Shown here piece after piece: positions 14,590-61,480 of a stretch of 64,000 nucleotides of DNA. A program made the position numbers and the translations under genes. Below the pieces are notes generated by a model. It searched no databases. It was not told the DNA's origin and saw only the letters and a list, made by a program, of their open reading frames with translations. Position 1 is the stretch's first letter. Every line of letters starts with the position of its first letter. The DNA comes from Rhina ancylostomus. Its lineage: Eukaryota. The stretch lies in the NCBI GenBank assembly GCA_030265395.1, contig JARFYF010000084.1, positions 74,600,065-74,664,064 of the forward strand. The letters are read 5' to 3'.

Positions 14590-14712
14590 CGTCCAGTTCG
14601 GTTGAAAGGTCATGGGCCAGGTACACTGCCTCCATTTCTCTGTCGGCCTGTGTACCTCCAGCACTTCCTGTTTTTAATTTCCATTTCCAGCATCTGCAAG
14701 TATTTTGCTCTT
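14590..14712 (+). mobile_element. Penelope-like terminal repeat remnant
   Basis: tccagcacttcctgttttt..tttccagcatctgca end shared with the family. Confidence 0.5.
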
Positions 14713-15204
14713 CAACCAGTGACCAGAAAGCACCTACCTTTGGGTTTTACTGGTATAGATGTTTAAACCAGAAATGGAAAGATTGACAGCTCATTTGTGT
14801 TTTTTTTAGTTGGCTCAATTTCAATTCTGTCAGAGGACCTAGTCAGTGAATTATCGGAAGTAGCTGAATTGCTCAGTTACTTTCACTATCAGGTACTGAG
14901 ATAACAATCTATAGGCAGTAAACTGAACTTTATACTTCATGGAAGCTTTGGATACATCCTTGCTGCTTCTAGTTACCCAATCTAGCTGCAAGCACTTGTG
15001 TACCCATGCAAGATCCTCTTAGGTGATCATATTAAATTCCAGGCATTAACTGTTATTAGTAGCTAGAACATGTGAAATATTTACCCTCTTAGTTAATATC
15101 ACAATAAATATATGGTCTTTACCCCATTGTTGCTTGCAGGAGTTTGCTGTGGACACTCTGCTATCATGGCCTACTTTACATGAGTAACTACACTTCAGTA
15201 GAAC

Positions 15205-15463
15205 AGCACATATAGTAGAGCTGCTATCTCACAGTTTCACATATCTGGGTTCGGTCCTGAAATCAGGTGTTGTCTGCGTGGAGTTTGCGTGTTCTCCCTG
15301 TGACTGGGTAGATTTCCTCCGGGTGCTCTGGTTTCCTCCCACATCCCAAAGACAGGCAGATTAGTAGGTTAATTAGATGCTAATTGCCTCACTTTTGAAG
15401 CAGATGATAGAACCCCGGGTGAGTGGGTTTTGATGGGAGTGTGGGAAGAATAAAATGGGATCA
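15205..15463 (+). mobile_element. HE1-type V-SINE
   Basis: gtggagtttgcgtgttctccctgtgactgggtagatttcctccgggtgctctggtttcctcccacatcccaaaga V-domain. Confidence 0.85.
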
Positions 15464-15726
15464 NNNNNNNNNNNNNNNNNNNNNNNNNNNNNNNNNNNNN
15501 NNNNNNNNNNNNNNNNNNNNNNNNNNNNNNNNNNNNNNNNNNNNNNNNNNNNNNNNNNNNNNNNNNNNNNNNNNNNNNNNNNNNNNNNNNNNNNNNNNNN
15601 NNNNNNNNNNNNNNNNNNNNNNNNNNNNNNNNNNNNNNNNNNNNNNNNNNNNNNNNNNNNNNNNNNNNNNNNNNNNNNNNNNNNNNNNNNNNNNNNNNNN
15701 NNNNNNNNNNNNNNNNNNNNNNNNNA

Positions 15727-16254
15727 GATGCTGGAACCTGGGGATACTGATACCTGGGGATACCTGGAACAAGATACTGAAGGAACTCAATGGATCAGGC
15801 AGCATCTGTGGAGGGAAATGGACAGTCACCGTTTCCGGCCAGTATAAGAAGGTGGAGGGAAGGGGTGGAGCAAGAGCTGGCAGCTAATAGATGGATCCAG
15901 ATGAGGAAGGGTGATTGGCAGATGGAGGAGTGGAGAGTGAGTACAACGACAGAAGAGACTGGGAGGTGATAGGTGGAGGTGACAAAGGGCTGCAGAAGAT
16001 GGAATCTGATGGGAAAGGAAGGTGGAGCATGGAATTAAACAAGAGGTGGAGAGGGCAGATAGGAACATTAGGGAGAGAGAACCCAGTGGGAGAAGTGTGT
16101 GGGTGATGGGAGATGGAGTGGGTGGAAGAGGAGCAAGAAACAGGGTGCTCAGGGCTGGGGTGAGTGTAGGAAGAAACAGGTAGACCAGGAAGAGAGAAAA
16201 AAGGGACAGGGGGGAGCAGTTTGCCTGAAATTGGAGAATTCGATGTTCAAAGCC
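15727..16254 (-). mobile_element. Penelope-like element 3' end: GIY-YIG ORF terminus plus terminal repeat
   Basis: Reverse strand encodes LNIEFSNFR (16221-16254), typical of the ORF end of vertebrate PLEs, then a pyrimidine-rich UTR and gactgtccatttccctccacagatgctgcctgatcc. Confidence 0.8.
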
Positions 16255-17179
16255 AAGTCCAAATCTTTCTTCAACCAAAGCCTATCTAGACGCACACATA
16301 TCTGGGCCAGATGCTGCCCAAGAACAAAAGCTATAACCAACTCAAAAACTACAACAACTAAAATGCCCACTGTGGACACTGTGGCAAGGCAAGGGTTAAG
16401 AGTGTGCAGGCAGAGATGGTTTGCAGTCAGTCTGCAGTCACCCATGCTGAGCAAGGTCCTTGAGAGCATAGCTCCTCTTTGTACAGCATGGGAGNNNNNN
16501 NNNNNNNNNNNNNNNNNNNNNNNNNNNNNNNNNNNNNNNNNNNNNNNNNNNNNNNNNNNNNNNNNNNNNNNNNNNNNNNNNNNNNNNNNNNNNNTTGCAG
16601 ACAGTCTGCAGTCACCCATGCTGAGCAAGGTCCTTGAGAGCATAGCTCCTCTTTGTACAGCATGGGAGCAGAGGTCACCAGGCACACCAAGACAAGGATG
16701 CAAACAAAGGACTGCAAGGCACACACTAACCATTGGACTATTACTTTACTTTAAGGTATTATTGGCCAGTAACACGTAGTTTCTATTGGTCATTAACACA
16801 TAAAATACCAATGATGTTCCATTAATATATGTATGCATATGAGGGATTCTAAGGTTGCCAAAGATTTTAATTGGTCAATATTTGTTTAAAAAGACAACTC
16901 TTGGTTGAAATTTTAGAATAGTTCGGTCACAGGGGCTGGACTGTTCTCCTTGTGCACAAGTAAAATGAAATGTGATTGAGAAACGAGCGCAAGTTGTTAG
17001 AGTCCAATTAATTGGCAACGACACCACCACTACCTCTCTGGGCCTTTTGATCATGTCCGCTGAATAAACTTGCTGTAACAAAAAAATTCAAACAGCCGGT
17101 TATGCTTTTTTAGCAACAGAAAGTGGTATGAACATGGGAGTCAGCAAGAACCAGTTGTAAGAAATGAATCAGCTAAAAC

Positions 17180-17405
17180 AAGGCAAAATGCAGCAGATGC
17201 AGGAAACGTGAAATAAAAGCAAGAATTCTAGAAATACTCTGGATCAAGCGGAAATCCTGGAGAGAGAAACTGAGTCAAAACCCTGCATCAGGACACAAAC
17301 ATTAATGCCTAAAACATTAAATTTCCTTTCTCCCTGCCCAATGATGTTGGCAGGTCTGTTAAGAGAGTTTCCAGAATTCTTTGCTTTTTATTCCACACTT
17401 CCAAG
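17180..17405. mobile_element. Inverted pair of Penelope-like terminal repeat remnants
   Basis: gcagatgcaggaaac..cctgcatcaggac followed by an inverse-oriented tttccagaattctttgcttttattcc. Confidence 0.6.
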
Positions 17406-18689: not shown

Positions 18690-18845
18690 TCTGGCTTGAT
18701 GCAGGGTCTCAACCTGAAATGTCAACAATTCCTCCGTGCAACCCCCCCCCCCCCAAACACCAATAGATCCTTCTCGACCTGATGAGTTCCTCCAGCAGAT
18801 TGATTGTTGCTCCAGATTCCAGCATCTGCACTCTCTTGTGTCTTC
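18690..18845 (+). mobile_element. Penelope-like terminal repeat with decayed hammerhead core
   Basis: cttgatgcagggtctcaacctgaaatgtcaac..gagttcctccagcag..ccagattccagcatctgca. Confidence 0.75.
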
Positions 18846-20713: not shown

Positions 20714-20866
20714 AGACACAAGAGACGGCAGATGCTGGAATCTGGAGCAACAAGAGGAACAAACTGGAGGAACTTTGCGGGCTCAGCANNNNNNNNNNNN
20801 NNNNNNNNNNNNNNNNNNNNNNNGAAATTGTCGACATTTCAGGTCAAAATCCTGCATCAGGGCCGA
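20714..20866 (-). mobile_element. Penelope-like terminal repeat with decayed hammerhead core
   Basis: Reverse strand CTGATGCAGGATTTTGACCTGAAATGTCgac..ccagattccagcatctgc. Confidence 0.75.
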
Positions 20867-23200: not shown

Positions 23201-23231
23201 GAGCAGTAAAATGATGTGAAGAACCATGGCA

Positions 23232-24130
23232 AAGCAAACAGTTAATAGCAGGACCCTTAACAGCATTGATGTACAGAAGGATCTTGGGGTCAAAGTCCAT
23301 AGCCCCCTGAAAGCAGCCACACAGGTAGATAGGGTGGTAATGAAAGCGTATGGCACACTTGCCTTCATTAGTTGAGGCACCGAGTTCAAGAGCCGGGAAG
23401 TTATGCTGCAGCTTTATAAACTCTGGTTAGGCTACATCTGAAGTACTGCATTCAGTTCTGGTCACCCCATTACAGGAAGGATGTGGAGCCAATAGAGAGG
23501 GTTCAGGAGAGGTTTACTAGGATGCTGCCTGGATTAGAGAGGGCATGTGCTACAAGGCAAGGCTGGAGAAACTTGGGTTGTTTTCTCAGGAACGGCGGGG
23601 CTGAGGGGAGACCTGATAGAAGTTCATAAAATTATGAAAGGCATAGATAGATAGCTGGTATCGTTTTCCTAGGGTCAAAATGTTTAATACCAGGGAGTAT
23701 ACATTTAAGGCTAGAGGGAGAAAATCCAAAGGAGATGTGTGGGGCAAGTTTTTTTTAAAAAGTGGTGGGTGCCTGGAATGCACTGCCGGGGTGGTGGGGG
23801 AGGCAGATACAATAGAGGCTCTTAGATGGGCATATGAATATGCAGAGAATTGAGGGATATGGACCACATGCAGGCAGAAGGGATTAGGAATCATTAGCTT
23901 AATTAGTTCATATATCACTGCATCATGAAGACTATAGAGGATCCCTGGTTACGGCAGGGTTTTGCTCCTGTGAATTGCTCGTAAACCAAACAGTTCGCAA
24001 ATGAGAAAGGCGACCACAAACTGAATTCCCACACGGCAGAAGATGCCTGCAGCAACCAGTAAAACCATCCCACCGGTCTCCCAAAATGGGCTGAAGGGCC
24101 TGTTCCTGTGATGTACTGTTCCATGTTCTA
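23232..24130 (+). mobile_element. CR1-clade LINE 3' fragment; tail interrupted at 23907-24088
   Basis: RDLGVKVHSPLKAATQVDRVVMKAYGTLAFI and YCIQFWSPHYRKDV peptides; the tail gggctgaagggcctgttcctgtgatgtactgttcc resumes after the insert. Confidence 0.9.
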
Positions 24131-24809
24131 AGGTGGACAGAATAAATGGGATTGGTGAAAAATCATTGTAAATGGGTGACTGATGATTGGCGCAGACTCA
24201 GTAGGCAGAAGGGCCTGTTTCCGTTCTGTATGATACCAAGACACTCTCTCTTTCTCTCTACTGGGCACCAAGACCCCACCATACTAATGTCTTCTCCTAA
24301 CTGTCTCTCAGCCTCACCAGTTTCGAGGCAAGAAAACATTGAAAACCGTTCATGTAGTTCCGCCATTCCATTGGACAATGTCCCTAAATATCATGCAATT
24401 CCAGGTTTCCTGGCTGTCCTCAGGCTGCCACTTCCACCACAAACATTCCGGGTTTGTCTCCATAACAGAGACATTGTAACCAGTTTCACTGTACATTCAC
24501 CCACAGTCAGTCACTGGCATTTCATATTAACCAGACCATAAGCCAACAGCTTGAAAGCAAAGGCAAGTCCCAATCAAATGTTACACCTGCATCTACTGCC
24601 AAGGAGAGTCAACAAATTTGTTGCCTGTAAATGGCTGAACAATGGCAGCAGGTAATCTTTTGTCAACAACATCTATTTCGCAGAACAAATTTATCATGCT
24701 CTAAATTATTGTGGGACATTTGCCTTGTAGTTGGACTCAGTGTAGATCAAGCATACTTCACAGGACATCAATGGAATATTCATATATCACTGCATCATGA
24801 AGACTAAAG

Positions 24810-25026
24810 AAGGTCCCCTGGTTACGGCAGGATTTTGTTCCTGTGAATTGCTCATAACCCAAACAGCTCACAAATGAGAAAGGCGACTGCAAACCGAATT
24901 CCCATATGGCAGATGATGCCTGCAGCCCTGCAGCAACCAGTAAACCCATCCCACCGGTCTCCCAAATGCTTGTTTGTGTGCATGGGCTGTACATAAATTG
25001 GGCATTCGTAAACTGAGGAGGACCTG
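24810..25026. mobile_element. Tigger/Tc1-mariner-like MITE (decayed)
   Basis: Imperfect TIRs aggtcccctggttacg ... cgtaaactgaggaggacctg. Confidence 0.6.
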
Positions 25027-27388: not shown

Positions 27389-27529
27389 TATATGAGGGAA
27401 GGATGGCTTTAGTTTTGTGGAAAGACAAGATGATCAGGCAGTTGTCAAAAAATAGTGATGGTTATGTGAAGCTTAAAAATGCTAGAATTAGTTTTAAGGT
27501 CCTGTTATTAGCAAACAGAGGCTGGATCA

Positions 27530-28350
27530 AATGCAAAAACAGAAAACGTTGGAAGTCTCAGCACATCCAGCCACATCTGTGAGAAGAGAAACAGAGTCCA
27601 ACATTTCAGATCGAAGACACTTCATCAGGGTCTGATGAAGACCCTGCAAAGAACATTTGGGTCCTTGGATGGTGGGAAGAGGTAAAGGGACAGGAGTTTC
27701 TTCGTCTGTGATTGCAAGGGAAAGTGCCCTAAGTGGGGAGGCTGGTGGGAATGGAAAAGTGGACCAGATTGTCACAAAGAGAATGGGTCTCTGCAAAATG
27801 TTGAAAGGGGTGGAGAAGAGGCATTTAGTGGTGGGGTCTCTTTAAAGGTGACGGAATTTGCAGACAATCTGTTGAATGCGGAGGCTGGAGAGGTAGAAGG
27901 TGAAAGCCTGGGGAATATCCTTCTATCCTAAAGGAGATGAAATGAGAGGAGAGGCTCAGGAAACAGATGTGGTCAAGGGTTTTGTTAATGATGGCAGAGG
28001 GGAAGCCAAGATTCAGAAAGAAAGACAACATTTCAGAGGCACCAATACAACAAGCCTCATCATCAGAGCAAATGTGACAGAGACAGGAGAACTGGGAGAA
28101 CTGGATGAGAGTCTTTACAGGAGACCGGGTGGGGCAAAGAGTAGTTGAGAGAGATACGAGTCATTTGGCCTCTAATGAATAGCTAGCCCACCTCCTGGAA
28201 TGGATACAGGGAGATCCAGAGTAGAAAGAGAAGAGTCAGACTTACTGTGTAAAGGTGAGGGCAGCATGGAAATTGGCAACAAAAGTAATGAAATTATCAA
28301 GTGCTGGAAGCAGTCATCACTGTACTGGAAAATGGTTTGGAGAAGCAAAA
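27530..28350 (-). mobile_element. Penelope-like (Neptune-type) retroelement remnant: RT C-half, Cys linker, terminal repeat with hammerhead core
   Basis: Reverse strand, frameshifted: FQYSDDC (YxDD), SDSSLSTLDLPVSI, LNYSLPHPVSCKDS, CHICSDDE, SFFLNLGFPSAIINKTLDHI, GTFPCNHRRRNSCPF, TIQGPK; then CTGATGA..GAAA and ccacagatg-type terminal repeat sequence. Confidence 0.85.
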
Positions 28351-28784: not shown

Positions 28785-29385
28785 CACAGATTCATAGTTG
28801 TACAGCACGGAACCAGGCCCTTTAGCCCAACTTGTCCATGCCAAGATACCTTTCTATGCTAATCCCGCTTACCTGCCTTTGGCCTATAACCCTCTAAACC
28901 TTTCCTATCCATGTGCCTGTCCAAATGCCTTACAAACGCTGTAATTTTACCCACCTCTACNNNNNNNNNNNNNNNNNNNNNNNNNNNNNNNNNNNNNNNN
29001 NNNNNNNNNNNNNNNNNNNNNNNNNNNNNNNNNNNNNNNNNNNNNNNNNNNNNNNNNNNNTACAAACGCTGTAATTTTACCCACCTCTACCACTTCCTCT
29101 GGCAGCTCATTCCATATACCCATCACCCTCTGTTTAGAGAAACTTGCCCCTTAGGTTCCCTTTAAATTTTTCCCCTCTTATCTTAAACCTATGCCTTCAA
29201 GTTTTAGGCTCCCCCACCCTGGGGGAAAAGAATGTGACCATTATCTATGTTGCTCATAATTGGTATACACCTCTATGGTCACCCCTCAGCCTCCTTCCCT
29301 CCAGGGAAGACAGTCCCAAGCCTATCCAATATCTCCATACAACTCAAGCCCTTCAGTCCTGGTAACATTCCCATGAATGTTTTCT
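28785..29385 (-). mobile_element. CR1-clade LINE 3' end (with 100-N gap)
   Basis: RHLDRHMDRKGLEGY remnant; tail gggctaaagggcctggttccgtgctgtacaactatga. Confidence 0.85.
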
Positions 29386-30896: not shown

Positions 30897-31275
30897 TTGG
30901 TATTGGTATTGGTATTAGTTTATTATTGTCACTTGTACCGAGGTACTGTGAAAAGCTTGACTTACAAACCGATCGTACGGGTCAATTCATTACACAGTGT
31001 AGTTAGCACAAAGTGCATTGATGTAGTACGAAACAGTAACAGTACAGAATAAAGTGTCACAGCTACAGAGAAAGTGCAGTGCAATAAGGGGCAAGGTCAC
31101 AACAGGGTAGATCGTGAGGTCCTCATTGTATAAAGGAACCGTTCAATAGTCTTATCACAGTGGGGTAGAAGTTGTCCTTATGCCAGGTGGTATGTGCGCT
31201 CAGGCTCCTGTATCTTCTACCCGATGGAAGAGGAGAGAAGAGAGAATGTCCCGGGTGGGTGGGGTCTTTGATTAT
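30897..31275 (-). mobile_element. Rex1/Babar-like LINE 3' end
   Basis: IIKDPTHPGHSLFSPLPSGRRYRSL..FYPTVIRLLNG; gtgacaataataaac and (AATACC)n tail. Confidence 0.85.
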
Positions 31276-32139: not shown

Positions 32140-32510
32140 CCAGGGACAACTGTGGGTGTCACGGCAGTGTAGCAGTAAGTGCAACTGCCCCAGGTTCAAC
32201 CCTGATGTCAGGTGTTTATCTGTATGGAGTCTGCACATTCTCCCTGTGACCATGTGGATTTCTTCCGGGCACTCTGATTTCCTCCCACATCCCAAAGAGC
32301 TGCTGGTAGGTTAACTGGCCACTGTAAATTACCCTGGGTGTGGATGGGTGGCTAAAAGAATCAACAAGAAGTTGATGAGCATGTAGGAGAGAGAAACAAG
32401 TTGAGGGTTACAGGGAAATAAGGAGGGGGAAATGGACTAATAGGATTACTCTGCTGGAAGCCGACATGAACCCAATGGGCTGAATGGCACCCCATCTGTG
32501 ACATTATAAA
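32140..32510 (+). mobile_element. HE1-type V-SINE
   Basis: tggagtctgcacattctccctgtgaccatgtggatttc..cctcccacatcccaaaga. Confidence 0.8.
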
Positions 32511-32880: not shown

Positions 32881-32994
32881 AAATGAACTCCAAGTGTTAA
32901 GTGAATAGGGAGCAAGTTGGCCTATAAGATCAATAGAAAGGACAAGTCATTGAGACTAAACTTACATGCCTTCCAGTAACTGACTACAAGTAAG

Positions 32995-33298
32995 CAAAAA
33001 ACAAAGTGCTAGAGGAACTCAGCGGTCAGGCAGCATCTGTGGAAGGAAATGGACAGTCAAGATTTTGAGTCGAGACCCTTCAATTGCACTGAAAGATAGA
33101 GGGGAGATAGGCAGTATAAAGAGGTGAAGGGAAAGGGTGGAGCAAGAGCTGGCCTCTATCTTTCAGTCCAGATGAAGAGTGTCAACCCAAATCATTGACT
33201 GTCCATTTCCCTTCACAGATGCTGCCTGATCCACTGAGTTTCTTCAGCATTTTGTTTGCTGCTCCAGATTCCAACATCTGCAGTCTCTCGTGTCTCCA
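32995..33298. mobile_element. Inverted pair of Penelope-like terminal repeats
   Basis: Arms at about 33003-33101 and 33153-33253 are imperfect reverse complements. Confidence 0.85.
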
Positions 33299-34090: not shown

Positions 34091-34939
34091 TGCTGGCACT
34101 TTTTTTAAAAACTCCAAAGTTCAAGGCTCAATTCTTATCTTGCATATTCATCTCTTCCTGTGCCACACTATCCTCTTGCATGACCCACTGAATACATTAT
34201 ATCATCTTGTGTGTCAACGTGGTTGAGACATGGAAGTGGTTATGACAACCTGCTCCCAGGCACAAAGCTGTTGACAACTCAGAGGTTGGNNNNNNNNNNN
34301 NNNNNNNNNNNNNNNNNNNNNNNNNNNNNNNNNNNNNNNNNNNNNNNNNNNNNNNNNNNNNNNNNNNNNNNNNNNNNNNNNNNNNNNNNNNNNNNNNNNN
34401 NNNNNNNNNNNNNNNNNNNNNNNNNNNNNNNNNNNNNNNNNNNNNNNNNNNNNNNNNNNNNNNNNNNNNNNNNNNNNNNNNNNNNNNNNNNNNNNNNNNN
34501 NNNNNNNNNNNNNNNNNNNNNNNNNNNNNNNNNNNNNNNNNNNNNNNNNNNNNNNNNNNNNNNNNNNNNNNNNNNNNNNNNNNNNNNNNNNNNCTGTTGC
34601 AATCCATACATATGCTGGAGTCAGAAGAGACTGCAGTAGAGCAGGGGTGGAGTTGGGAGACAGTGGACTGTCTATTTAATAGAAGTGGCCTTAGTAGAGC
34701 TTGACATTTTAAATGTTTGTTTATATTTTACTATACTTTGCTTGAAGCAGTGAACCATAAATAACTGTGTCATTAATGGAATAGGTAGGGTTTCAAAACT
34801 TGATTTTCCCCCCCCCATTATTGACGCAAGTGTATGCAAATTCAATAAGGACATTTTCTTGTAATTGAATTCTTGCAATTGAAGTTCCCAGAAGGAGGTG
34901 GGATGGGGGAGTTGCTTATCCATCAATTTTTAATTAAAT

Positions 34940-39823: not shown

Positions 39824-39825
<2 letters not shown>

Positions 39826-43422: not shown

Positions 43423-43594
43423 TGAGACAAGAGATCCTGCAGATGCTGGAATCTGGAGCAACACACACACACAAAATGCTGGAGGCACTCAGCAGGTCAG
43501 GCAGCATCTAAGGAGAGAAATAAACAGTCGACGTTTTGGGTCAAGACTCCTCCATAAATGCTGCCTGACCTGCTGAGTTCCTCCAGCATTTTGT
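43423..43594. mobile_element. Penelope-like terminal repeat with inverted duplication
   Basis: 37-bp arms at 43471-43507 and 43558-43594 with one mismatch. Confidence 0.85.
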
Positions 43595-45639
43595 AAAAAT
43601 TGTTTAACTCTTGTTGCAGAAGTCCAAATGTTCAACACTATTACACCTGATTTCTACAATGAGTAGAGGAGTATTGTACCTGGAGCTTTCTGATAAAATG
43701 TCTATGCGAAACACACAATAAAATTACACAGCAAACACTGACGAGCCCAGTCTCTCATCATAACATCTGCCCATCATAGGTGTTAATAGAATAAGAATTC
43801 CTACGCACATTGCAGACATGAGAAATCAAACACATGCATTCTGTTTATTCACTGCCTGGCTGAATAAATATTGAGATAGTAAAACATTACAAAACTAACA
43901 CCAGCTTTCTAACCTGCCCACAAAATAATTCAGAGTGTACAGAAAATGCTCCCTCTCTGAATGCAGTCTTGAAACCACGTCCTAAACAGTGTGGATGGTA
44001 ACTAAAGAACGTCACAGCTATTGAATAATATGTGCAAATCCAACTTTCCGGCCAATCACATTCAAGACACATGGCTAAGAATACAAAGGAACCCAAGCAC
44101 AGGGCTTCAAGCAACAGGCCACAAGTTCCATCACTTAGTCCACTTAACCGACAATAGTGAGTAAAGGTCCCAGAAAGGTAATTCCAAATCAACCAATACT
44201 CATAGCAAATTGGTGACTCTCCAGATTGGACCAATGATCCATGAGCACCTCTCAAATATAAATATACAAAAAAAGCACATGTACAAAATTTATCAGGACT
44301 TGATTGTGAGCTGCAAGTCCCTGTGGTATTCTCTCATCTCTGGCAGACAGACAGATCATCCCAGGGCCCCTGACTGTAAATGGGAGGAACTCTTGTCATT
44401 CTCTACCCTGCTACTCAGAACCCCGAAAACTTGGAAAATGGTAAAGGTAATGCACTGTCCCCAAGTATTTAAGAACATAGCAAGTAGAAAAAGAGTAATC
44501 CATTTGAGAGGGAATTGCAAAGATACACCATATCTGGGTGATGACATCTTCTCATTTCAGTCTTGAATGGCCGACCTCTTATTATGAGACTATGAACCAA
44601 AGGAAACCATTATCCCTACGTCTCTGTTCTGTAATCTTCAATGAGATTTTCTCTTATTCTTTCTTTGTGATACAAAACTCCCCCAAGATAGGAAATCATG
44701 CAGTGAATCTTTGTTACATCCTTCTTTGACAAGCATATTCATCCTTNNNNNNNNNNNNNNNNNNNNNNNNNNNNNNNNNNNNNNNNNNNNNNNNNNNNNN
44801 NNNNNNNNNNNNNNNNNNNNNNNNNNNNNNNNNNNNNNNNNNNNNNAGGTTGGGGGGGTGGGGTGGGGGGAGAGAGAGCAGACTTCAACATGTTATTCTG
44901 GGTGTGGGTGGGGGTCGTCACACCAGGACTCAATATTATTGAGGTAAAAAAGGCTCGACTTGTATTCACATTCTCTTGCAATAAATGCCAATGTACCACA
45001 TGCCTTTCTAATTGCTGACAATACATGTGCGTTATCTTTCAGATATGTTCAAGGATACCCATGTCCCTCAGAATACCATACCTTTCAATCAATTTGTCAA
45101 TGTTCAAGCACGTTTCTACAATAGCTTAAGAATTTTAATAAAGGTGGGTTCAAAATGAAATGATATCCAATCACCTGAATCAAGCTTGTAATTGAGCTGG
45201 AGAAAAAAAATCATTACCAATTGGCAACCTTGGGTCCTGACCAGTTTATTTGGAAGAGGGTGGATTAAAAAAACTGGGTGAGAAATTCCCCTTTGTGAGT
45301 GAAGAGAAATTTCCATTCCAATGTGTTCAAGATTCAGCAGGAATAAAACAGAAATCAAAAACTTATGGGAGGGTCCAGGGTCTTAGAGAAAAAATATTTT
45401 CCATGTTTATGAAATATGCTGGGTTCCACTAGCAAGCTGACACTCACTTTAGGACAGATATCGTATTTGGTGTTTATTCAAATGTTTGAGTTAGCATTGA
45501 ACTTAGACATGGTACTCCAAGCCAATGACCTTGCAAAATTCTCCCTGCTGTGGACTGCTGTCTTCATGCGGAGAACTAGTCAAACAGAAGAGTCAAGGAT
45601 AAAGAGCAAAAGCTAATACTCAGAGTCATACATCAGAGA

Positions 45640-47070
45640 CATGCTTCAGTTTTCTGCTACCATCCTAGGGTGGAACCTGTTCACCTACAGGATATGCCCA
45701 CCAGAGGTGATGGCACACCTCATAAGAGTATCCAATCCTGGAATTCATCGACATTGACTCCAGGACATCAAGTCTTGAGATATTAGACCAACCCTAGACA
45801 AATAAACCTCCACCTGCTTACCACCTCAGCTGATGAGTCAATTCTTCTCCATACTGAGCATCACTTGAAAGTAGCACTGTATAACAAGGGCATAGAATGT
45901 AGTCTGGGTGAGGGTCTTTAATATCCAGCATTAAGAGGAGCCATAGTCAGGTTGGCCAAGTTCTCAAGGAGATAGCTGCCAGACTGGGTCTCTAACTGCA
46001 GATGCTGGAATCTGGAACAACACACAAGATGCTGGAGCAACTCAGTGGGTCAGGCAGTCCATTTCCTCCATAGATGCTGCCTGACCAGTGGAGTTCTTCC
46101 AGCATCTTGTCTGCTGCTCTGGGTCTGTAGCAGGTAGTGAGCAAACAAATGTGAAGAATAAACCTATCTAACCTCACCGCCTATTCTGATATACTGGTCC
46201 ATGATGACATTTGTTAGGACAGAATTCTCTTGGTCCCCTCTTTACTGAGGGCCCATTCAAATTTCTGGCGTTAACATTACCACTACAAAAAATTGTACTC
46301 CATCACAATTTGTAACCCCAGGGTACAGTGCGTCCTTTGCTCTCTGATCTCTACCAAGCAAGGGACCAGCTTTGAACAAGGTTCCACTCCATTTGCAGCT
46401 CCTAATGCAGCAAGAACTAGGTACCAATCATGGGCCGGTAAGTGACAAGTAACATTCCTGCCACAAACACAGCAGGCAATAACCATCTCTAAGCATATAC
46501 CTTTGACATTCAAAGACATTGCCATTGTCAAGTCTCCCATCAACAACACCTTACGGTCACCACCGACCAGAAACAACAGGAACAGCCACATAAGTAGTGT
46601 GGCTACAAGAGCAGTCAGGAGGTTGGGTATCCTGCAGTAAGTGGCTCACCGCCTGACACCCCAAAACCTTTCCACCATCTAAAAATGCCAGGAGTGTGAT
46701 GGAATACTCCCCACTTACCTTAATGAGTGCAGCTCCAGAAACTCCCAAGAAACTTTACACTACCCATGACAAAGCAGCCAGCTTGACTGGCACCCCATCC
46801 ATCAGCCTAAATATTCAATCTCTCCTACACCGGTAACTGCACTTCATACCATCTACAAAATGCACCACAGTCACTTACCCAGACTACTCTGATAATACTG
46901 ACCACCATTCCTTCATCATCACTGGGTCTGAATGCTGCAATGTCCAACCTCAACAACACTATAGGAAGACTATCAGGGGACAACAAGAGCTTAGGAAAGC
47001 AGCTCACCATCACTTCCTAAGGGCAACTGAGGATGGCCAATAAATACAGATCTTGGTGGAATCAATGCAG
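45640..47070 (+). mobile_element. Jockey-group LINE family B, decayed endonuclease and RT C-terminal remnants, with a Penelope-type inverted repeat at about 45995-46120
   Basis: PPSADESILLHTEHHL and QVLKEIAARLG (endonuclease region); SWAGK*QVTF, SHISSVATRA, RSVMEYSPL (RT region). Confidence 0.7.
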
Positions 47071-49757: not shown

Positions 49758-49759
49758 AT

Positions 49760-50035
49760 GCACTTTTGTCTGTATTATCACCTCTGACTGCCCCAATGAT
49801 CCATTTGACCATTATACCCAATGCAAGCCTGGCCTCATCCTAACCAGAGCTATTCCCCTTGTCCAATCCATCCCTCCCCTGCTGTTCTGCATTAACGTGT
49901 TTTCCCCAGTTCTGACAAAGCATCTACAGCTTTAAATATTAATTCTGTTTCTCTTTCCGCAGATGTTGCCTAACCTGCTAAGCATTTCCAGCACCTTCTA
50001 TTTTGGATTTCCAGCATCTGCAATATTTGCGACTT
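49760..50035 (+). mobile_element. Penelope-like terminal repeat remnant
   Basis: ttccccagttctgacaaag..tctctttccgcagatgttgcctaacctgctaagcatttccagca..tttccagcatctgca. Confidence 0.65.
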
Positions 50036-50464: not shown

Positions 50465-50932
50465 TTAATACATCATGGACACATCCCTCCCCACTGTCAG
50501 TACTATTTACAGGAAGTGCTGCCTCAAGAAGACAACATCCATCAAAGATCCCTACCATCCAGGCCATGCCATCTTTTCTCAGCTATAATCAGGAAGGAGG
50601 TACAGATGCTTGAAGTCCCACACCACCAGGTTCAACAGCAGCTACTTCCCTTCAACCATTTGGTTCTTGAACCAACTAGCAAAAACCTAATCACTGCTAC
50701 CATTTAGCAACACTGACCGCCCTGATCACTTGCACTAAAATGGACTTTGTTTTTCTTTGTTCTAATTGTGTTTTCTTGTAAAAATTGTGTATAGTTTATG
50801 TTTAATTTATGTTTTTCTTGTGAGTGCTGCTTGTATGATGCTATGTGCCTGTCATGCTGCTGCAAGCAAGTCTTTCATTGCACCCGTGCATACACATACT
50901 TGTACATGTGACAATAAACTTGACTTTGACTT
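50465..50932 (+). mobile_element. Rex1/Babar-like LINE 3' end
   Basis: IKDPYHPGHAIFS..SGRRYRCL remnant; gtgacaataaacttgactttgactt tail. Confidence 0.8.
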
Positions 50933-51439: not shown

Positions 51440-51760
51440 AGCCAGATAATCGTACAGCACAAAATAGGCCCTTCAGCCCACCAAGTCCACATCAATCATT
51501 AACCACCCATTTACAATAACCCACTTCATTCTCCCCACATTCCTCTCAGACTCTACCACTCACCTACACGCAAGGGGCAATTTGCAGCGGAATAATTAAC
51601 CTAACAGCCTGCATTACTTTGGGATGTGGGAGGAAACCCGAGCTCCTGGGAAGAAACCCATGCAGCCACAGGGAGAACACGCAAACTCCACACTGACAGG
51701 TACTAACAACCTGGGTTACTTGTGCTGTAAGGCAGCAGCTCTACCAGCTATGCCACTGCT
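51440..51760 (-). mobile_element. HE1-type V-SINE
   Basis: tttgggatgtgggaggaaacccgagctcctgg..gggagaacacgcaaactccaca is the reversed V-domain. Confidence 0.85.
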
Positions 51761-52317
51761 GCCCAAGTTTAAGTATATATTAAAAAAACTCAATACATTT
51801 TGCAGTTCATCAAATATAGTGTACAGTGGCAGACATAAAACCTCCACATAAAATTCATTCTATATTTCTCTTGTCACCTCCCATGAAATTATGATTAAAG
51901 ACAAAGACAAAAGGGGAAAAGAACCAACATCTTTCCTAACTCATTTTTCCCCAAGTTTGCTATCAACTAGCAGTCATGCAGTTAGCCTCAAGTGTATTTA
52001 CCACACTACCAAACAACCCCAGTAGTCTGGCCATGGGACAATAAACTATGTGGCGCTGTCTCCAGGCCACACACACACACAGACATATACACACGCACAC
52101 ACTGTTGACTGTGCCTGCAAAAGACAGTACCTAACAACAAAACCTGGATGTGTGGGTCTTTTAAAAACCTGCCCTAACAATCCAAAAAGGCAAAGGATAG
52201 AAAGTGATTACTTCTGGGTTATTAGACCTCTGTGCCACCAGTCCTAGGCTGTAACATGGGGGCCTGCTCTCAACTCGGTCTGCATCAATCTGTTCACATC
52301 AAATTGTTCGCATCAAT

Positions 52318-52496
52318 CAACCTGTCTATATCAATGGTGCCGAGGTTGAGAGGGTTGAGACCTTCAAGTTCCTGGGAGTGAACATCACCAACAACCTATC
52401 CTGGACAAATCACGTAGAAGCCATGGCCAAGAAAGCTCACCAGTGCCTCTACTTCCTCAGGAGGCTAAAGAAATTTGGTTTGTCCCCTTTGACTCT
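52318..52496 (+). mobile_element. Rex1/Babar-like LINE ORF fragment
   Basis: PVYINGAEVERVETFKFLGVNITNNLSWTNHVEAMAKKAHQCLYFLRRLKKFG. Confidence 0.85.
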
Positions 52497-52596
52497 NNNN
52501 NNNNNNNNNNNNNNNNNNNNNNNNNNNNNNNNNNNNNNNNNNNNNNNNNNNNNNNNNNNNNNNNNNNNNNNNNNNNNNNNNNNNNNNNNNNNNNNN

Positions 52597-53440
52597 CCAA
52601 GGACAGTATGGTCAATAACTCAGGAGATGAGAGAGCATTGGTACAGGATAACATGGGGGAAATTAACAAGCAAATGTAACATGGTGGGGCAGAAAATGTA
52701 AAAAATGGTTGCAGGGTGACCAGGAATGGGTGCTTGATATTCCAGGTTATATGATATTCCAAAAGGACAAGCCTAAAGAGAAAGGAGCAAAGTAGCATTG
52801 TTAATCAAACAAGGTATTAGAGCAGTGTTGTGTCATGATATGGAAACAGTGGATAGTAATGTAAAATTGGTTTGGGTTGAAATCATGAATAGCAGAGGAA
52901 AGAAGACATGGGTGGTAATAGTCTATAGGCCTCCAAAATGTGACCTCTCGATAGGGGTAGAGCATAAATGGGGGAATATCTCCAGCATGTTTGAAGGAAA
53001 CTGCAGTTGTCATGGGAGAGTTTAATCTACATATCCATTGAACAAATCAAACTGGCAAGTCTATCAAAGAAGAATTTGCAATGTGTGTCAGGAACTGGTT
53101 CTTAGAACAGCAAGTTACAGAACCTACTTGCTAACTGGCTATTTTAGATTTGGTCATGAGTAATGGAGGAGGATTAATAAGAGATCTTGTAATTAAAGAT
53201 CCGCTTGGAGGTAGTAACCATAATATGCTAGTATTTCAGATGCAGTTATAGGGTACCACAGGGCAAAAATCACCACCTTCAACTTAAAGAAGGGCAATTA
53301 TATAGATATGAATGAGTTGTCCAAGCTGGACTGGGAAAATAAGCTAAGAAACTGAACAGTATCTAAAGTTGTATACAGTGAAGAGGAGTATCAAGAATTA
53401 GTGGGATCTTAATCAGCTGGATAGGTGTGCATAGACTGGG
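52597..53440 (+). mobile_element. CR1-clade LINE ORF2 APE-endonuclease remnant, internally deleted
   Basis: IPGY, VYRPP, VVMGEFN, AILDLV and PLGGSNHN motifs, then a jump to the RT-side gatcttaatcagctgg segment. Confidence 0.85.
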
Positions 53441-53684: not shown

Positions 53685-53897
53685 ATGAGCTGCTCCGAAT
53701 CGCTGCTTCGCCCCATCCGCAGGAGCGCATGGATCGTGGGCGCTCTGTCCCATTACTTCGGCTCGGAGAGCGCCCAGGAGGACAACGAGATTGTGGTTCT
53801 GGCTATCGGCACCGACCAGTACCTGCAGGAGATATTCCAACACTTGAGCTACCAGGGAGACGGGCTGGTGTCGGCCGAGGACTTTTCCCAGTTCTGA
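53685..53897 (+). pseudogene. EFCC1/CCDC48-like N-terminal gene fragment (70 codons), truncated by a Penelope-type repeat; putative 5' UTR from about 53440
   Basis: MSCSESLLRPIRRSAWIVGALSHYFGSESAQEDNEIVVLAIGTDQYLQEIFQHLSYQGDGLVSAEDFSQF* resembles the recalled EFCC1 segment [41 protein letters not shown]; EF-hand-like loop SYQGDGLVSAEDF; GC- and CpG-rich relative to flanks. Confidence 0.78.
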
Positions 53898-54200
53898 CGG
53901 AGGGTCTCGGACCCAAGGCGTGAACCATCTCTCTCTCCCTCTCCACAGAAGCTGCCTGACCTGCTGTGGATTTCCAACATTACTGTAAACTACCACTAGA
54001 ATACAGGCCGCTAGCAACAGTCAGGAGGTCGGGCAGCATCCGCGGAGAGAGAAGTGGTGACATTTCAGGTCGATGACCTTCCTTTAGGGTTCGGAGGGAG
54101 GGTTAAGAGCTGAAATGCCAACAATCTCTCTCTCCACGGACCTGTTGCACCTCTCAGTTTTTATTTTGGATTGCCAGCATCTGCAGGATTTTATTTCTCA
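53885..54200. mobile_element. Cluster of Penelope-like terminal repeats (+, -, +)
   Basis: cccagttctgacggagggtctcggaccc..ccacagaagctgcctgacctgctg; reversed copy at 54015-54085; forward copy at 54100-54200. Confidence 0.75.
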
Positions 54201-54429
54201 TCGGGAAATGACACTGAGGATAAGGCTACGTGGCGCCCAGCGAGAGTGTGCTGCTGTTGCCCACGGGAGACCTCGTTTCTGAGGTGCATTCCCCCACAAG
54301 ACTTCGAATGCCCCCCCTTTCCCCCGGTCTGATAGGGTGGGTGGAGTTGGATGAGTGGTGATGGGTTCTAAAGCAAGGAAGAATCATTGTGATTGGTAAA
54401 TGGAAAGCTGAACAGGCCTAGAAGGTCAT

Positions 54430-54537
54430 CAACACACAAGATGCTGGAGGAACTCAGCAGGTCAGGCAGCATCTGGGGAGGGAGGGAGGGAAATGGTCAG
54501 TCAACATTTCGGGTCGAGACCCTCCATCTGGAAAGTC
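54430..54537 (-). mobile_element. Penelope-like terminal repeat with hammerhead-like core
   Basis: Reverse strand CAGATGG-A-GGGT-CTCG-ACCC-GAAA-TG-TT-gactga..gatgctgcctgacctgctgagttcctccagca. Confidence 0.8.
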
Positions 54538-56797: not shown

Positions 56798-57275
56798 TGG
56801 TAAATCGGTTTATTATTGTCACATGTACTGAGGTACAGTGAAAAACTTTGTTTTGCATGCCAGCGATACAGATCAGTTCATTACAATAGTGCATTGAGGT
56901 GGTAGAAGGCAAAGCAGTAACAGAATGCAAAATAAAGTGCTACAGTTGCAGAGAAAATGCAGTGCAGGCAGACAATAAAGTGCATGGACATAATGAGGTA
57001 GATTGTGAGGTCAAGAGTCCATCTTATCCTACTAGGGGAGCGTTTAATAGTCTTATAGCAGGATAGAAGCTGTCCTTGAGGCTGGTGGTACCTGCTTTCA
57101 GGCTTTTGTATTTTCTGCCCGATGGAAGGGGGAAGAGGTGAGAATATCCGAGGTGGGTGAGGTCTTTAATTATGCTGGTTGCTTTACCAAGGCAGTGAGA
57201 AGTGTAGATTCCATGGAGGGGAGTTTTGTTTACGTGATGTGCTGGGCTGTGTCCACAACTCTTTGCAGTTTCTTG
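56798..57275 (-). mobile_element. Rex1/Babar-like LINE 3' end
   Basis: Reverse strand KLQRVVDTAQHIT..SIIKDLTHLGYS..PSGRKYKSLKA remnant and the shared UTR. Confidence 0.85.
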
Positions 57276-57467
57276 TTACAGGTGATAACTCCCACTCTTG
57301 TTAGGCACATGTGACGTGCTGTACCTTTCAATGGCAGCGTTCAGCTTATCCATTATCTTCACATACTGTTAAGTTGGCAAAGACAACACAATCTGCCTGA
57401 TAGGAAACCAAGCAGGGCCTAAAATACCCCTCTCACAATTCTCACAGGTAACCTGTACAACTCGTTA

Positions 57468-57781: not shown

Positions 57782-59779
57782 TATAAATGCCTCTTGAGTA
57801 GGACACTTTCTCCACAGCTAAATGTTTGGTCACTTCAGAATTAGAAAACTTTTAAGAGTGGATCTTAAAAATAATGGGAGGAAGTTGTTCCAAATGAGGA
57901 AAAGGCTCTGGTGAGGCAGTGGTATTGCTTTAAAGAACAATGGTATATCCAGGAGTTATAGATCAATTCCAGAGTTGCACTCTCACTTCAGCACGCATCT
58001 CAGTCTTCAGATCTGGTGCCAAAGGGTAGGATCATACAAGATCAGCTTCTCCTCCACAAAAAGGCAGAAGAATAACTATATACTTAACAAGGATATGAAG
58101 CATTAAAGAGGTCTTCCAGTACCAGGCTGCAGGACTGATTATTCGTTTGTCATGCCTGAGGATGTTTAGATCAGTAGCAACAATGCACGCTTTACAGACC
58201 AGAATTCAAACTGAGGACCTCCCAAGTTTATGGCCCTGTGCCACATGCTAACAGGAAAAGAATGCTTGTTCTTTAAACATATCCATTTGTGAACATTACG
58301 ATCAAAATATCCACAAACATTTGCATATCTTTATGTATGAAGCAGGAGGGCTTACCCAATTAAAGTATTTATTTTTATAATAATGAGTTTTCTCATTAGC
58401 AATTAAATCCTCAGAACTACAGCAAAGAAAGTTGGACAGATAAAAGAGGGCACTGAATGGTTATACTCAACACTCTTAATATCAACCAACATTTCCATTT
58501 TAATGAAAAGTTTGAGTTATCCAAAAGTGAATATCCAAGATGTCCAAAATTTGACAACATTGCAAGGATCTGTGATATTCCCCACAGCAGAACTGTCTGG
58601 TGGCAAAACAAAAGTCTAAAATCTGGTTTCTGTAGCCCATTGTATTTAGGAGGAAGGATCAAAGTTAAATGAGTTTCCCAGCCCATTTTCTTTACACCTT
58701 CCTGATCACATAGGTCTGCCCAAACTTAGGGTGTAGATGTAGGCAATGTACTTTCAGGCTGAAATAAAAATAGAAGATGCTGGAAGTACTCAGCATATCA
58801 GGCAACTTTGTGGAGAGAGATACACATACAGAGTGATTGATTCAGGTTGATGGCCATTCAGGCTTTTGCACCTTTCATTTACTCAGAAGTCACTCTTTGT
58901 CCCAGTACTGGCCACCTCAGCCAGATAGGAACGCAACACATTTTCCTCTATGGTGCTTCAAGTATATACTTTGGGCAAGCCTCAACCTTAAAAAAACAAC
59001 CATCATAAACACTGAAGATAAAGAGTGGATTTTCCTCAAACTAACTGTAACAAAGAGCATGGGACATGTCTTGAACAAAGTTCAAAGCTCAACTCCATGG
59101 ACACCAGCNNNNNNNNNNNNNNNNNNNNNNNNNNNNNNNNNNNNNNNNNNNNNNNNNNNNNNNNNNNNNNNNNNNNNNNNNNNNNNNNNNNNNNNNNNNN
59201 NNNNNNNNNNNNNNNNNNNNTGTTCAGACATGAGTGAAAGACCTTTCCAATATTAGACAACGCAAACTCATTTTCAGATACTTTTTTTTATTCCAAAACT
59301 GCACCAATTTAACACATGCACTGGTTTCCTAACAGGATTAATACTGCAGCCATCTTAAAAAGGGCAATTCCTTCCAAATTCCAGATTATTAAAAGGCAGC
59401 ATATTTGCATTAATTACAATAACTTTTCACATAATGGAGGAGAAAGTAATGGATATTATGCCTTTGTAGATAGGACAGGAGGTAACTGAGACCATGATCA
59501 AATACAATGGCTTTACAGATTGCTTTTAAAATTCAGGATGTAGGTTGGTGGGAAGGGATTTAAGCAGAGAATGATGTCATTAGCATCACATGACGGTGTC
59601 CATACAGCTGAACTTTGTTCAAGGCACGTCCTGTGCTGTATGTTACAGCTAATTTGAAGAAAATCCTCTCTTTATCCCCTTCAAGGTGCCCGCTAGCCCT
59701 ACCACCAATTAATGAAGTAGATGGAGAAGTGGGGTGATATTAGCAGAAGGGCAGAGCCAGGGAGCCAAAGGATATGGAG

Positions 59780-59995
59780 AAAAAAAAACAGCAGATGCTG
59801 GAAACCCAAAATAAAAATAGAAAATGCTGGAAGTGCACAGCAACGCAGACATCTGTGGAAAGAGAAACAGAATCAGGTCGAAGAATTTTATTTGACCAAT
59901 TCTCATCAAGGGTCTTTAACCTCAAAGGTTAACTTCTGTTTCTCTTTCCACAGATACAACCTCATCATTTTCAGCATTTCCTGCTTTATTTCAAA
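59780..59995. mobile_element. Inverted pair of Penelope-like terminal repeats
   Basis: atctgtggaaagagaaacagaa and ttctgtttctctttccacagat are reverse complements. Confidence 0.75.
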
Positions 59996-60289
59996 AAGAT
60001 GCAGGGCCTAGTAAAAGCCAAGGTGAATAGTCCCTCTACTATTAAAAACAATCCGTAGATGGTGATTTGAAACAAGCTGTTGGAGGACTAAAGATTTCTC
60101 ACATACAGTCCAGCTCCCAAAGGCACCTTCGGCATCTGATGCACAATGAAAGGAAATGGCAGTGATTCATAGTCTGTTGGACTGAATTCTGTGGTATTAA
60201 TGGACTTCCAAAGACCTTTGAGGTGCCACATAACAGGCTTGTCATCATGATTCAAGGCCATGGAATAAATGGGGCAGGAGCAACAATGA

Positions 60290-61480
60290 TACAAAATTGT
60301 CTGACTAACAGGAAAGAATGGTAGTAAAAGGTGTTTCCCCCCCCCCCCCCCCAGATTGGAGGGAAGTGTACAGAGGATTTCCCAAGGGGTCAGTACTTGG
60401 NNNNNNNNNNNNNNNNNNNNNNNNNCCTAATATATATATATTAATGATAGTGGACTTGGATACAGAGAGTTCAGTCTCCAAATCTGCAGGTGACACCTAT
60501 CACCTCCCAGCTCCTGTCGCTATGTCAACTCTTCCCTCCATCTGCCCAAGACCTTGCTTCACCTGAATCCACCTATCACTCGCCAGCTCTTGCCCCACCC
60601 CTTCCCTTCACCTCTTTATACTGGCCATCCTCCCCTTTACTCCAGACAAAGGGTCTCGATCCAAAACTTCGACTGTCCATTCCCCTCCACAGATGATGCC
60701 TGAGTAGCTCCAGCAGTTTGTTTTTTGCTCCAGATTCAAGTTCCTATAATCTCGTTTCTCCAAACACAAAACCTGTCAGATGCAGTGAATGTTAAGGAGG
60801 AAAGTAATGGCCTTCAAAGAGATATAGAAAGGGTGGCAGATGAAGTTGAATGGTGCAAAATGTAAGGGGTTACATTTTGGTGTAGGGAATGAGAAGAGCC
60901 AATATAAATTTAGAGGACACAACATGAAAAGCGGTACAACAACAAGAGAGATCTGGGGTAGATGTGCACAGTTGGTTGGAGGTGGTAGGGCAAGCTGAAA
61001 AAGTTGATAAAAGGGGCAGGTCGGATTCTGATCTTTATAGACCAAGACTTAGAGTACAAGGTTTTAAGCAAGTCAAAGGGAATCTTTAAAAAGCAATTGT
61101 TCAGCCGCAACTGGGAGTTCCAGGCCCAGTTCTGGGAATCAGACAAAGTTGTAAAAGCTTTGGAGAAACTGCACAAGAGATGTACTAAATTGATTTCTGA
61201 GATGAGGGTCTCCAGTTACGCAAGTAAACTGAGCCTGGACTGTTCTCCTCGGAACAGAGGAGGTTGCAAAGGGATCTGATGGAGTCATTTAATATTACGA
61301 AGGGCGTAAACAAAGAGCAGAGAGAAAATGTTTCCACTGACCAAGGACCAAAGATACAGAATGAAGGCAAATGGGGGGAAAGATGCCTTAAAAAAATATT
61401 TCATGCAGCATGTGTTCAGGGTCTGAAATACTGTGGCAGAGATAGTAGTGGAGGCATATTCAACTGCAACATTTTTAAAA
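60290..61480 (+). mobile_element. CR1-clade LINE RT remnant, interrupted at 60497-60761
   Basis: WREVYRGFPKGSVLG, SKSAGDT|K (FADDTK), QQQERSG/RDLGV-region and AQFW motifs. Confidence 0.85.
60497..60761 (+). mobile_element. Penelope-like 3' UTR and terminal repeat nested in CR1
   Basis: Homologous to the reverse of 15760-15990; ccagacaaagggtctcgatccaaaacttcgactgtccattcccctccacagatg. Confidence 0.8.

Follow-up and report, generated by a model that had tools for sequence, protein, structure and literature searches.

Features of the window

The window analysed here, the whole 64-kb stretch of DNA, carries an exon of JARID2, remnants of a Penelope-like element (PLE) and copies of a short repeat, some of which lie in opposed pairs. 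The exon is on the minus strand; a scan for short motifs located no upstream JARID2 exon, and the intronic position of the copies is presumed. An nhmmer profile of the repeat gave 23 matches at 15 loci between 14593 and 60744, and none in the reversed window. As the matches at 20728-20781 and 20827-20864 form a single copy divided by an N gap, we count 22 copies at the 15 loci, or 22 copies per ~62 kb of called sequence. A previous sequence-only reading had spoken of more than a dozen related copies, in line with this count, and all eight copies to which it gave coordinates (8/8) fall within profile matches on the strands that it named. The features are as follows (copies by nhmmer unless indicated; core scores are out of 11 hammerhead core nucleotides).

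2460..2624, minus strand: JARID2 exon (context, sets the sense strand), matching Protein Jumonji residues 108-162 (E 5e-28)
14593..14698, plus strand: subfamily B copy, 6/11 core
15739..16247, minus strand: 5'-truncated PLE end, from an ORF-end match; the last 8 ORF codons (16247-16224), then a ~390-nt pyrimidine-rich 3' region, terminating in a subfamily A copy without the first half of the hammerhead
17193..17393, both strands: head-to-head inverted pair of 17193-17295 (minus; A9C, without the second half of the core) and 17308-17393 (plus; weak match, E 0.0013)
18692..18830, plus strand: subfamily A copy, A9C sublineage, 9/11 core
20728..20864, minus strand: subfamily A copy split by the N gap, A9C sublineage, 10/11 core (relaxed-descriptor hit)
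27516..27635, minus strand (JARID2 sense): subfamily B copy, the only one with an 11/11 core (hammerhead part 27635-27590), stems I and II broken
27644..28310, minus strand: decayed PLE ORF remnant with the C-terminal part of the reverse transcriptase (RT) and the RT-endonuclease linker, ending before GIY-YIG (tblastn)
32990..33283, both strands: head-to-head inverted pair, both subfamily A with U4A, 7/11 and 8/11 core
43437..43595, both strands: head-to-head inverted pair, subfamily A, 5' truncation inside the hammerhead
45996..46120, both strands: head-to-head inverted pair, subfamily A, without the hammerhead part
49907..50022, plus strand: subfamily B copy, 9/11 core
53889..54186, both strands: triple insertion (plus, minus, plus), subfamily B, 7/11, 9/11 and 8/11 core
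54428..54537, minus strand (JARID2 sense): subfamily A copy with U4A, 9/11 core
58760..58860, minus strand: subfamily B copy, 5/11 core
59791..59990, both strands: head-to-head inverted pair, subfamily B
60494..60744, plus strand: subfamily A copy with U4A, 8/11 core, with ~140 nt of the upstream PLE 3' region attached

The repeat unit is ~125 nt or longer, and its copies split into two subfamilies, A and B. Most are ~100-125 nt long with a 5' start near the hammerhead, at which the seed profile also started. Only the first ~40 nt, the first third of the unit, correspond to a hammerhead; contrary to the earlier proposal, the repeat is not itself a ribozyme but a truncated PLE end that begins with a hammerhead relic. 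No tandem array of the unit was found in the window. The claim that it is the most abundant short repeat is marginal: it exceeds a SINE-like family of the window in matches (23 vs 16) and loci (15 vs 14), but covers fewer bases (2.2 vs 3.05 kb). Half of the copies (11/22) lie in JARID2 sense; the earlier reading had spoken of several.

Hammerhead consensus and single copies

An automatic majority consensus was built over the 15 hammerhead-bearing copies, together with a rule-based CpG-restored form; the other 7 copies, whose 5' part is wholly or partly lacking or has an internal deletion, were kept out of the alignment. Both forms of the pooled consensus satisfied our own implementation of the minimal-hammerhead descriptor of Cervera and de la Pena, with stems I and II of 4-5 bp each (3-7 bp required); shuffling the 125-nt consensus 20,000 times gave no sequence that did so. 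The minimal type I architecture that the first reading had recognized (core plus an extra nucleotide, stem II, GAAA and a palindrome) is that of the ancestral motif and follows the published PLE pattern. The consensus given by that reading is a composite that mixes sublineages: the subfamily B consensus satisfies the descriptor alone, while that of subfamily A fails with 2 core mismatches.

On the level of single copies, the strict descriptor gave no hit on either strand of the 64 kb, which agrees with the earlier remark that no copy matches the full consensus. The relaxed descriptor gave 3 hits, 1 of them within a copy (20728-20864), against 0-4 in six shuffled sequences. The palindrome 15.1-16.1, which would form helix III of a dimer, was present only in the CpG-restored consensus and in a relative outside the window (L001, see below); of the 15 aligned copies, 2 have CG at positions 15.2/16.2 and most others TG or CA. 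Rfam returned no match in the window at the gathering score and 10 unrelated weak ones at E up to 10, a silence that is uninformative as the intact L001 motif was also missed.

The proposed stems were paired in 71% of the alignment cells, compared with 23-41% when the partners were slid. Covariation within the window was weak. The sole repeated compensatory pair is the first of stem I (C-G in 5 rows, U-A in 4), and it counts as one event since its distribution follows the A/B subfamily split; the covariation score of the window copies was equalled in 31 of 500 shuffles, and RNAalifold predicted no structure for the 16 aligned rows. Translated repeat copies, searched in the protein set for added covariation, had no match. 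No single-copy fold was significant against shuffles, and the copy at 27516..27635 did not fold into the hammerhead stems. The fold as a dimer cost 1.1 kcal/mol relative to two monomers for the CpG-restored consensus and 7.4 kcal/mol for the decayed one, and the cofold of lowest energy was a different symmetric duplex rather than the catalytic dimer.

Association with a Penelope-like element

The decayed RT remnant (28310-27644, minus strand) ends 12 nt from a repeat copy on the same strand (27632), for which we estimate a rough chance of 0.006. It was matched by tblastn to P0005 (E 8.6e-15), with no match in the reversed control, and all 26 related proteins (26/26) match the window only at this remnant (best E 3.7e-18, reaching 27644). 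An exhaustive protein search with the RT fragment gave 12 matches, one of them unrelated (P0012), while a word-indexed search gave none; Pfam assigned no family to the fragment or to the 16152-16400 frame. The junction at 27644 is not a native ORF-to-repeat junction, because it lacks the GIY-YIG domain and the 3' region and is interrupted by a short inverted piece.

In its relatives, the RT is followed by a GIY-YIG domain, and P0005, P0006 and L001 carry a C-x4-C-x2-C linker, of which the second cysteine is changed in the window remnant. This linker pattern is tied to Neptune in PMC8557442, and the source PLE is probably Neptune-like; a Poseidon-like label was rejected on account of the cysteine linker. 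The host is probably an elasmobranch.

An ORF end is suggested at 16247-16224, where the translation shows an exact 8-residue match to the ORF-end motif of a stingray PLE-derived protein (1 chance octamer in the control). This end was not significant by tblastn, profile HMM or shuffled alignment; its support lies in the exact match together with its spacing above the copy at 15840. The upstream 3'-region part of 15739..16247 is common to 60494-60613 and 33122-33153, and the copies reach upstream by differing lengths into this same PLE 3' region.

Among the 22 neighbour pairs, 7 consist of adjacent copies on opposite strands, joined head-to-head in 6 cases and tail-to-tail in 1; two further repeat families had no such pair among 30 (p 0.001). 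A full-length element, with direct tandem pseudo-LTRs round an ORF, was not found in the window, as is expected of truncated copies.

Two relatives independent of the window place the motif behind a PLE ORF. In L001, the only match of the motif among GTDB genomes, a GIY-YIG ORF is followed after ~95 nt by an intact hammerhead, whose stem I, absent from the search pattern, pairs over 4 bp with different letters. In the zebra shark protein P0023, a PLE ORF is followed by a 360-nt spacer and then by a translation of the motif (9/11 identical); this likeness was first noticed by eye and 1 of 60 shuffles was equally good, and translations of 7 real copies did not single out P0023. Taken with the adjoining RT remnant and the inverted pairs, the two relatives uphold the PLE derivation that the first reading had put forward.

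Decay of the copies and core-altered sublineages

Identity to the consensus was 62/120 at CpG columns and 234/296 at other columns, a comparison that is partly circular as the CpG columns were chosen from the same data; 47 of the 58 changes at CpG columns were C>T or G>A. CpG decay, to which much of the damage had been attributed, is confirmed, but part of the damage consists of core changes inherited within sublineages. Core and downstream positions were equally well kept, in one subfamily (p 0.72) as in the other (p 1.0).

In subfamily A, every copy with a retained first box (6/6) carries either U4A or A9C. U4A is present at 3 loci, in 4 copies. When only the downstream sequence is compared, no other quartet of copies is closer (rank 1 of 1365); T>A changes occur in the background at 14/269. 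The 3 copies with A9C group less closely by their downstream sequence (rank 295 of 455). As U4A is common to a younger sublineage, it seems to have spread with a non-canonical core, and it is conceivable, though we hold it tentatively, that younger sublineages of the PLE end were amplified after they had fixed the U4A and A9C core changes. If masters of this kind cannot cleave, ray genomes would hold a natural experiment in which a PLE spreads without ribozyme catalysis, or with catalysis provided in trans by an intact dimer partner. Such a reading would bear on the role of PLE hammerheads, which the U4A sublineage could make testable.

Origin of the repeat

We consider the repeat to be the 3' terminal repeat (pseudo-LTR end) of an endonuclease-bearing PLE, whose first ~40 nt derive from a hammerhead and whose copies decay neutrally (probability about 0.88). 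Reverse transcription of the element would begin at the 3' end and in most cases stop soon afterwards, an inverted piece often being joined on; such early abortion with an inverted piece is a known behaviour of PLEs. Insertion aborted in this way would leave stubs of ~125 nt, single or in head-to-head pairs, which is the arrangement observed here; the ancestor of the first ~40 nt of the stub is a minimal type I hammerhead. While the ancestral element was active, two such motifs on one tandem transcript would join via their 4-nt palindromes and so supply the missing helix III, and the dimer, by analogy with published PLE ribozymes, would cleave weakly after position 17 and release the unit RNA. 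Once inserted, the copies decay neutrally, with CpG deamination reaching G12 and the palindrome first.

The element is of a known kind, a decayed PLE tail with a hammerhead already known from PLEs. Minimal type I hammerheads were described in PLE terminal repeats by Cervera and de la Pena in 2014 (PMC4209133), and the architecture of the window consensus equals the consensus given in Fig. S3 of that survey. Both have the first box with one extra nucleotide, a stem II opening with G-C, the second box, palindromic 15.2/16.2, no helix III loop and a short stem I, and in both the motifs are mainly solo, from truncated PLEs, with some close opposite-strand pairs. The window differs in its short stem II (4-5 bp), in the decay of all copies and in the sublineages with U4A or A9C. 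The endonuclease-bearing PLEs of PMC8557442 (Neptune, Penelope/Poseidon), which have a C-terminal GIY-YIG and inverted 5'-truncated copies, share with the window the RT-GIY-YIG order of its relatives, the 5' truncation, the inverted adjacent copies and the terminal-repeat hammerhead, whereas the window holds fragments only, with GIY-YIG absent. No cartilaginous fish appears in Table S1 or the examined rows of Fig. S3 of PMC4209133, and the literature searched, which covered few subscription papers, held no earlier description of the motif in sharks or rays. The advance is modest: PLE minimal hammerheads are extended to a dense repeat in a probable elasmobranch, a lineage absent from those parts of the 2014 survey. 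Since CpG decay at G12 and at the dimer palindrome leaves 0 of 22 copies detectable, descriptor scans undercount such repeats.

Alternatively, the repeat could be an independent non-autonomous family, SINE-like or retrozyme-like, which arose from a PLE end and spreads from its own short masters. It differs from the preferred origin in the source of the RNA alone, PLE ancestry being common to both. The length of most copies (~100-125 nt), their start near the hammerhead, as in the seed profile, and the core changes common to sublineages speak for it, as does a preprint (10.64898/2026.07.22.740005) in which animal retrozymes are traced back to the terminal repeats of PLEs and one chondrichthyan is reported to carry them. 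Metazoan non-LTR retrozymes (PMC7229834; 10.64898/2026.07.22.740005) are likewise short, non-coding, hammerhead-bearing repeats related to PLE terminal repeats, but theirs stand head-to-tail in tandem with complete ribozymes, whereas the window has neither tandem arrays nor an intact ribozyme. With the upstream extensions of variable length into the same PLE 3' region, and with inverted pairs that fit PLE integration, we regard such a family as unlikely.

That some copies are active ribozymes, cutting JARID2 pre-mRNA as monomers or paired and kept for this role, is highly improbable. Half of the copies are in JARID2 sense, the cores at 27635-27590 (11/11) and 20864 (10/11) are well kept, and one pair of sense copies is separated by 441 nt. 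However, the copy with the complete core has lost its stems and adopts another fold, each member of the close sense pair carries 2 core changes, and the window holds no same-strand intact pair for dimer cleavage. The core is kept no better than the flanks, nor better in sense than in antisense copies (8.5 vs 7.9 of 11, p 0.35), and the monomeric minimal hammerhead gave no cleavage in PMC4209133. The amniote ultraconserved intronic hammerheads, e.g. that of RECK, are also type I motifs in introns but, according to a figure legend in PMC6155905, few, conserved and canonical, while the window copies are multi-copy, minimal and neutrally decaying. Since CpG deamination strikes G12 and the palindrome first, the present copies are very probably inactive and not cutting JARID2 pre-mRNA, as the sequence-only reading had supposed for most of them. 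Least credible of all is a hammerhead likeness that arose by chance when decayed copies were aligned by eye. In its favour, the descriptor accepts no copy, its relaxed form gives no more hits than in shuffled sequence and Rfam lists no hammerhead; but the automatic consensus passes against 0/20,000 shuffles, Rfam is silent on intact L001 too, and both L001 and P0023 come from outside the window.

For JARID2, there is no sign of an effect via cleavage; long dsRNA formed by inverted pairs in the pre-mRNA would be the likelier route to any effect. The pair at 32990..33283 folds as a single long hairpin (-160 kcal/mol, z -16).

Repeat copies in the probable JARID2 intron

A profile of the repeat, a ~125-nt terminal-repeat remnant of Penelope-like elements (PLEs) whose first ~40 nt are a hammerhead relic, was built by iterated nhmmer from six seed copies (125 positions; matches at E up to 0.01). 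It gave 23 matches from 14593 to 60744, which represent 22 copies at 15 loci, 11 of them on the JARID2 sense strand, and no match in the reversed window used as a control. All eight sites named in the sequence-only reading were recovered. One exon of the gene was identified:

2460-2624, minus strand: JARID2 exon (Protein Jumonji residues 108-162, E 5e-28)

A short-motif scan located no upstream JARID2 exon, and we infer that 14.6-60.8 kb is a JARID2 intron. The CpG observed/expected ratio of the window is 0.24. That the repeat is the most abundant one holds by a narrow count (23 matches vs 16 for a SINE-like family counted likewise), whereas the SINE-like family, at 14 loci, covers more bases (3.05 kb vs 2.18 kb).

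Hammerhead signature of the consensus

The evidence for a hammerhead is the consensus rather than single copies. A minimal-hammerhead descriptor, implemented from the main text and supplement of PMC4209133, found no strict match in the window; when one core and one stem mismatch were allowed, three matches appeared, only one of them inside a copy, while six shuffles gave 0-4. Single copies are therefore no evidence for a hammerhead. The consensus alignment comprised 15 of the 22 copies and L001, a locus from a prokaryotic genome collection; in the seven copies left out, the 5′ portion is missing wholly or to a large extent. Both the plain majority consensus and a rule-based, CpG-restored consensus passed the descriptor; when the 125-nt consensus was shuffled 20,000 times, no shuffle passed. 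Stem cells were paired in 71% of cases vs 23-41% with slid partners, a level reached by 1 of 500 shuffles, and the stem covariation score was reached in 31 of 500. RNAalifold returned no structure for the alignment, and Rfam detected no hammerhead in the window, missing the intact L001 motif as well.

In a tree built from only the downstream part, the 22 copies split into subfamilies A and B, 11 copies each (support 99/98). All five copies with U at position 2.1 belong to B, four of them with A at 1.1, while most copies combining C at 2.1 with G at 1.1 belong to A; the 2.1/1.1 change is one compensatory event. Subfamily B (mean identity 0.62) passes the descriptor alone, whereas A (0.74), with U4A and G12A, fails it. 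U4A is common to four A copies at 3 loci, the closest quartet by downstream sequence (1 of 1365), which the tree leaves unresolved within A (shuffles as low in 203/500); A9C is common to three copies, which show no downstream clustering of that kind. Thus the perfect hammerhead consensus proposed from the sequence mixes subfamilies; as a composite, it most plausibly represents the ancestor of A. Changes at U4 lower hammerhead cleavage, and the U4A sublineage is the part of the finding worth following. According to PMC3088659, a ribozyme with an altered core is usually presumed inactive, a few rare variants being tolerated; its text does not name U4A.

Decay of the copies

As the sequence-only reading held, much of the damage is CpG decay: 47 of the 58 changes at CpG columns are C>T or G>A, and identity at these columns is 62/120 vs 234/296 elsewhere, the columns having been picked from the same data. 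G12 and the dimer-helix palindrome are among the decayed CpG sites. Only the copy at 27635-27590 keeps 11/11 core bases; this copy has broken stems and adopts another fold. The core is no better kept than the downstream part in two comparisons (59/70 vs 626/730; 69/88 vs 535/685), nor better in sense than in antisense copies (p 0.35); the copies are therefore under neutral decay.

Energy modelling puts the cost of the catalytic dimer, relative to two monomers, at 1.1 kcal/mol with the restored consensus and at 7.4 kcal/mol with the decayed one. In both cases another symmetric duplex has a lower energy than the catalytic dimer, so activity is neither demonstrated nor excluded by the model.

Origin from Penelope-like elements

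All 26 related PLE proteins used as queries matched the window at one place only, with no matches in the reversed window:

28310-27644, minus strand: PLE reverse transcriptase (RT) remnant

The remnant stops 12 nt short of the copy at 27632. At 27644 the junction is not native: it lacks the endonuclease and contains a short inverted piece. This piece (27633-27650), from the hammerhead first box, joins the ORF remnant to the copy and is a possible template-switch scar. The best-annotated relatives of the remnant are from rays and sharks, which makes an elasmobranch genome likely. The C-x4-C-x2-C linker carried by PLE relatives tentatively points to the Neptune clade.

Upstream of the subfamily A copy at 15840, ~390 nt of pyrimidine-rich sequence is preceded by an 8-residue exact match to a PLE ORF end, which by itself is near chance (1 match in the control); in further tests this match, at 16247, was not significant. 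Opposite-strand neighbours less than 150 nt apart make up 7/22 pairs vs 0/30 in two other families (p 0.001), a fourth family (2/7, from overlapping hits of self-complementary ends) being left out. An inverted, 5′-truncated arrangement has been described for PLEs (PMC8557442).

Among 185,579 prokaryotic genomes, a degenerate pattern restricted to the two boxes and stem II matched in exactly one place, L001, where an ORF with RT-thumb plus GIY-YIG is followed, after ~95 nt, by a minimal hammerhead that is intact. Stem I of L001, which the pattern did not include, forms 4 bp from letters that differ from those of the window. The locus (contig CBDDTI010000588.1, 3000-4084), a PLE with an inverted 5′ piece in a GTDB bacterial MAG, probably represents animal DNA that was binned with the MAG; many relatives among the ENA proteins look like similar cases. 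In P0023, a PLE-derived protein of the zebra shark, the ORF end is followed by 360 nt more and then by a stretch 9/11 identical to the translated restored consensus. This match, first seen by eye, was the top of 780 comparisons and was equalled in 1/60 shuffles; the unrestored consensus and real copies did not recover it.

Many animals, among them bony fish, lamprey and coelacanth, are known to carry minimal hammerheads in PLEs; no cartilaginous fish was noted in the species lists of PMC4209133. Retrozymes have been reported in one chondrichthyan (preprint 10.64898/2026.07.22.740005) and intronic PLE expansion in a whale-shark preprint (10.1101/443036). Literature searches turned up no description of the motif for sharks or rays, a negative result of little weight.

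Expected activity

The copies are truncated, often inverted PLE ends with a hammerhead-type consensus, decaying neutrally. Judging from the literature, the ancestral motif would have been a weak ribozyme that cleaved in tandem transcripts by dimerizing; in PMC4209133 a monomer did not cleave, and dimers and trimers cleaved poorly. Inverted pairs place their two motifs on opposite strands, where they pair with each other in a long hairpin (for 32990-33283, -160 kcal/mol, z -16), and the nearest same-strand neighbours (199, 441 and 742 nt) all have broken cores; cleavage of JARID2 pre-mRNA by the copies is therefore unlikely. We read the repeat as a genuine feature, a PLE end of known sort, probably dead in all copies here. 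The pair at 32990-33283 and five other head-to-head pairs would form long hairpins in the pre-mRNA and are candidate A-to-I editing substrates.

Other features in the window

53685-53894, plus strand: ORF antisense to JARID2 matching Pfam CCD48 (EFCC1/CCDC48 N-terminus with EF hand, E 9e-16)
12646-62793, 14 loci: ~320-nt SINE-like family (e.g. 32178-32488, 51462-51743, 61995-62307)
30914-31273, 34937-35226, 40192-40443, 50543-50878, 56803-57171, 63910-63997: ~360-nt repeat family
52255-52701, minus strand: frame that we take to resemble a LINE reverse transcriptase in its C-terminal part
16421-16494 / 16595-16668: local direct duplication flanking an N gap, possibly an assembly artefact
23907-24085 / 24779-24966: local direct duplication
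59017-59084 / 59609-59676: 68-nt inverted repeat, 524 nt apart

The SINE-like family, in which ARAGORN found no tRNA, has an end segment in common with a second family (e.g. 8698-9050, 28788-29241). It may correspond to HE1 SINE / HER1 LINE, a label listed in a table row of PMC3747384. Ends of the ~360-nt family match its profile on both strands, which suggests self-complementary termini. The CCD48 frame enters a triple repeat insertion at 53889, where it ends, and GC-rich sequence continues after 54190. The frame belongs either to a nested gene or to a pseudogene that the repeat insertion disrupted.
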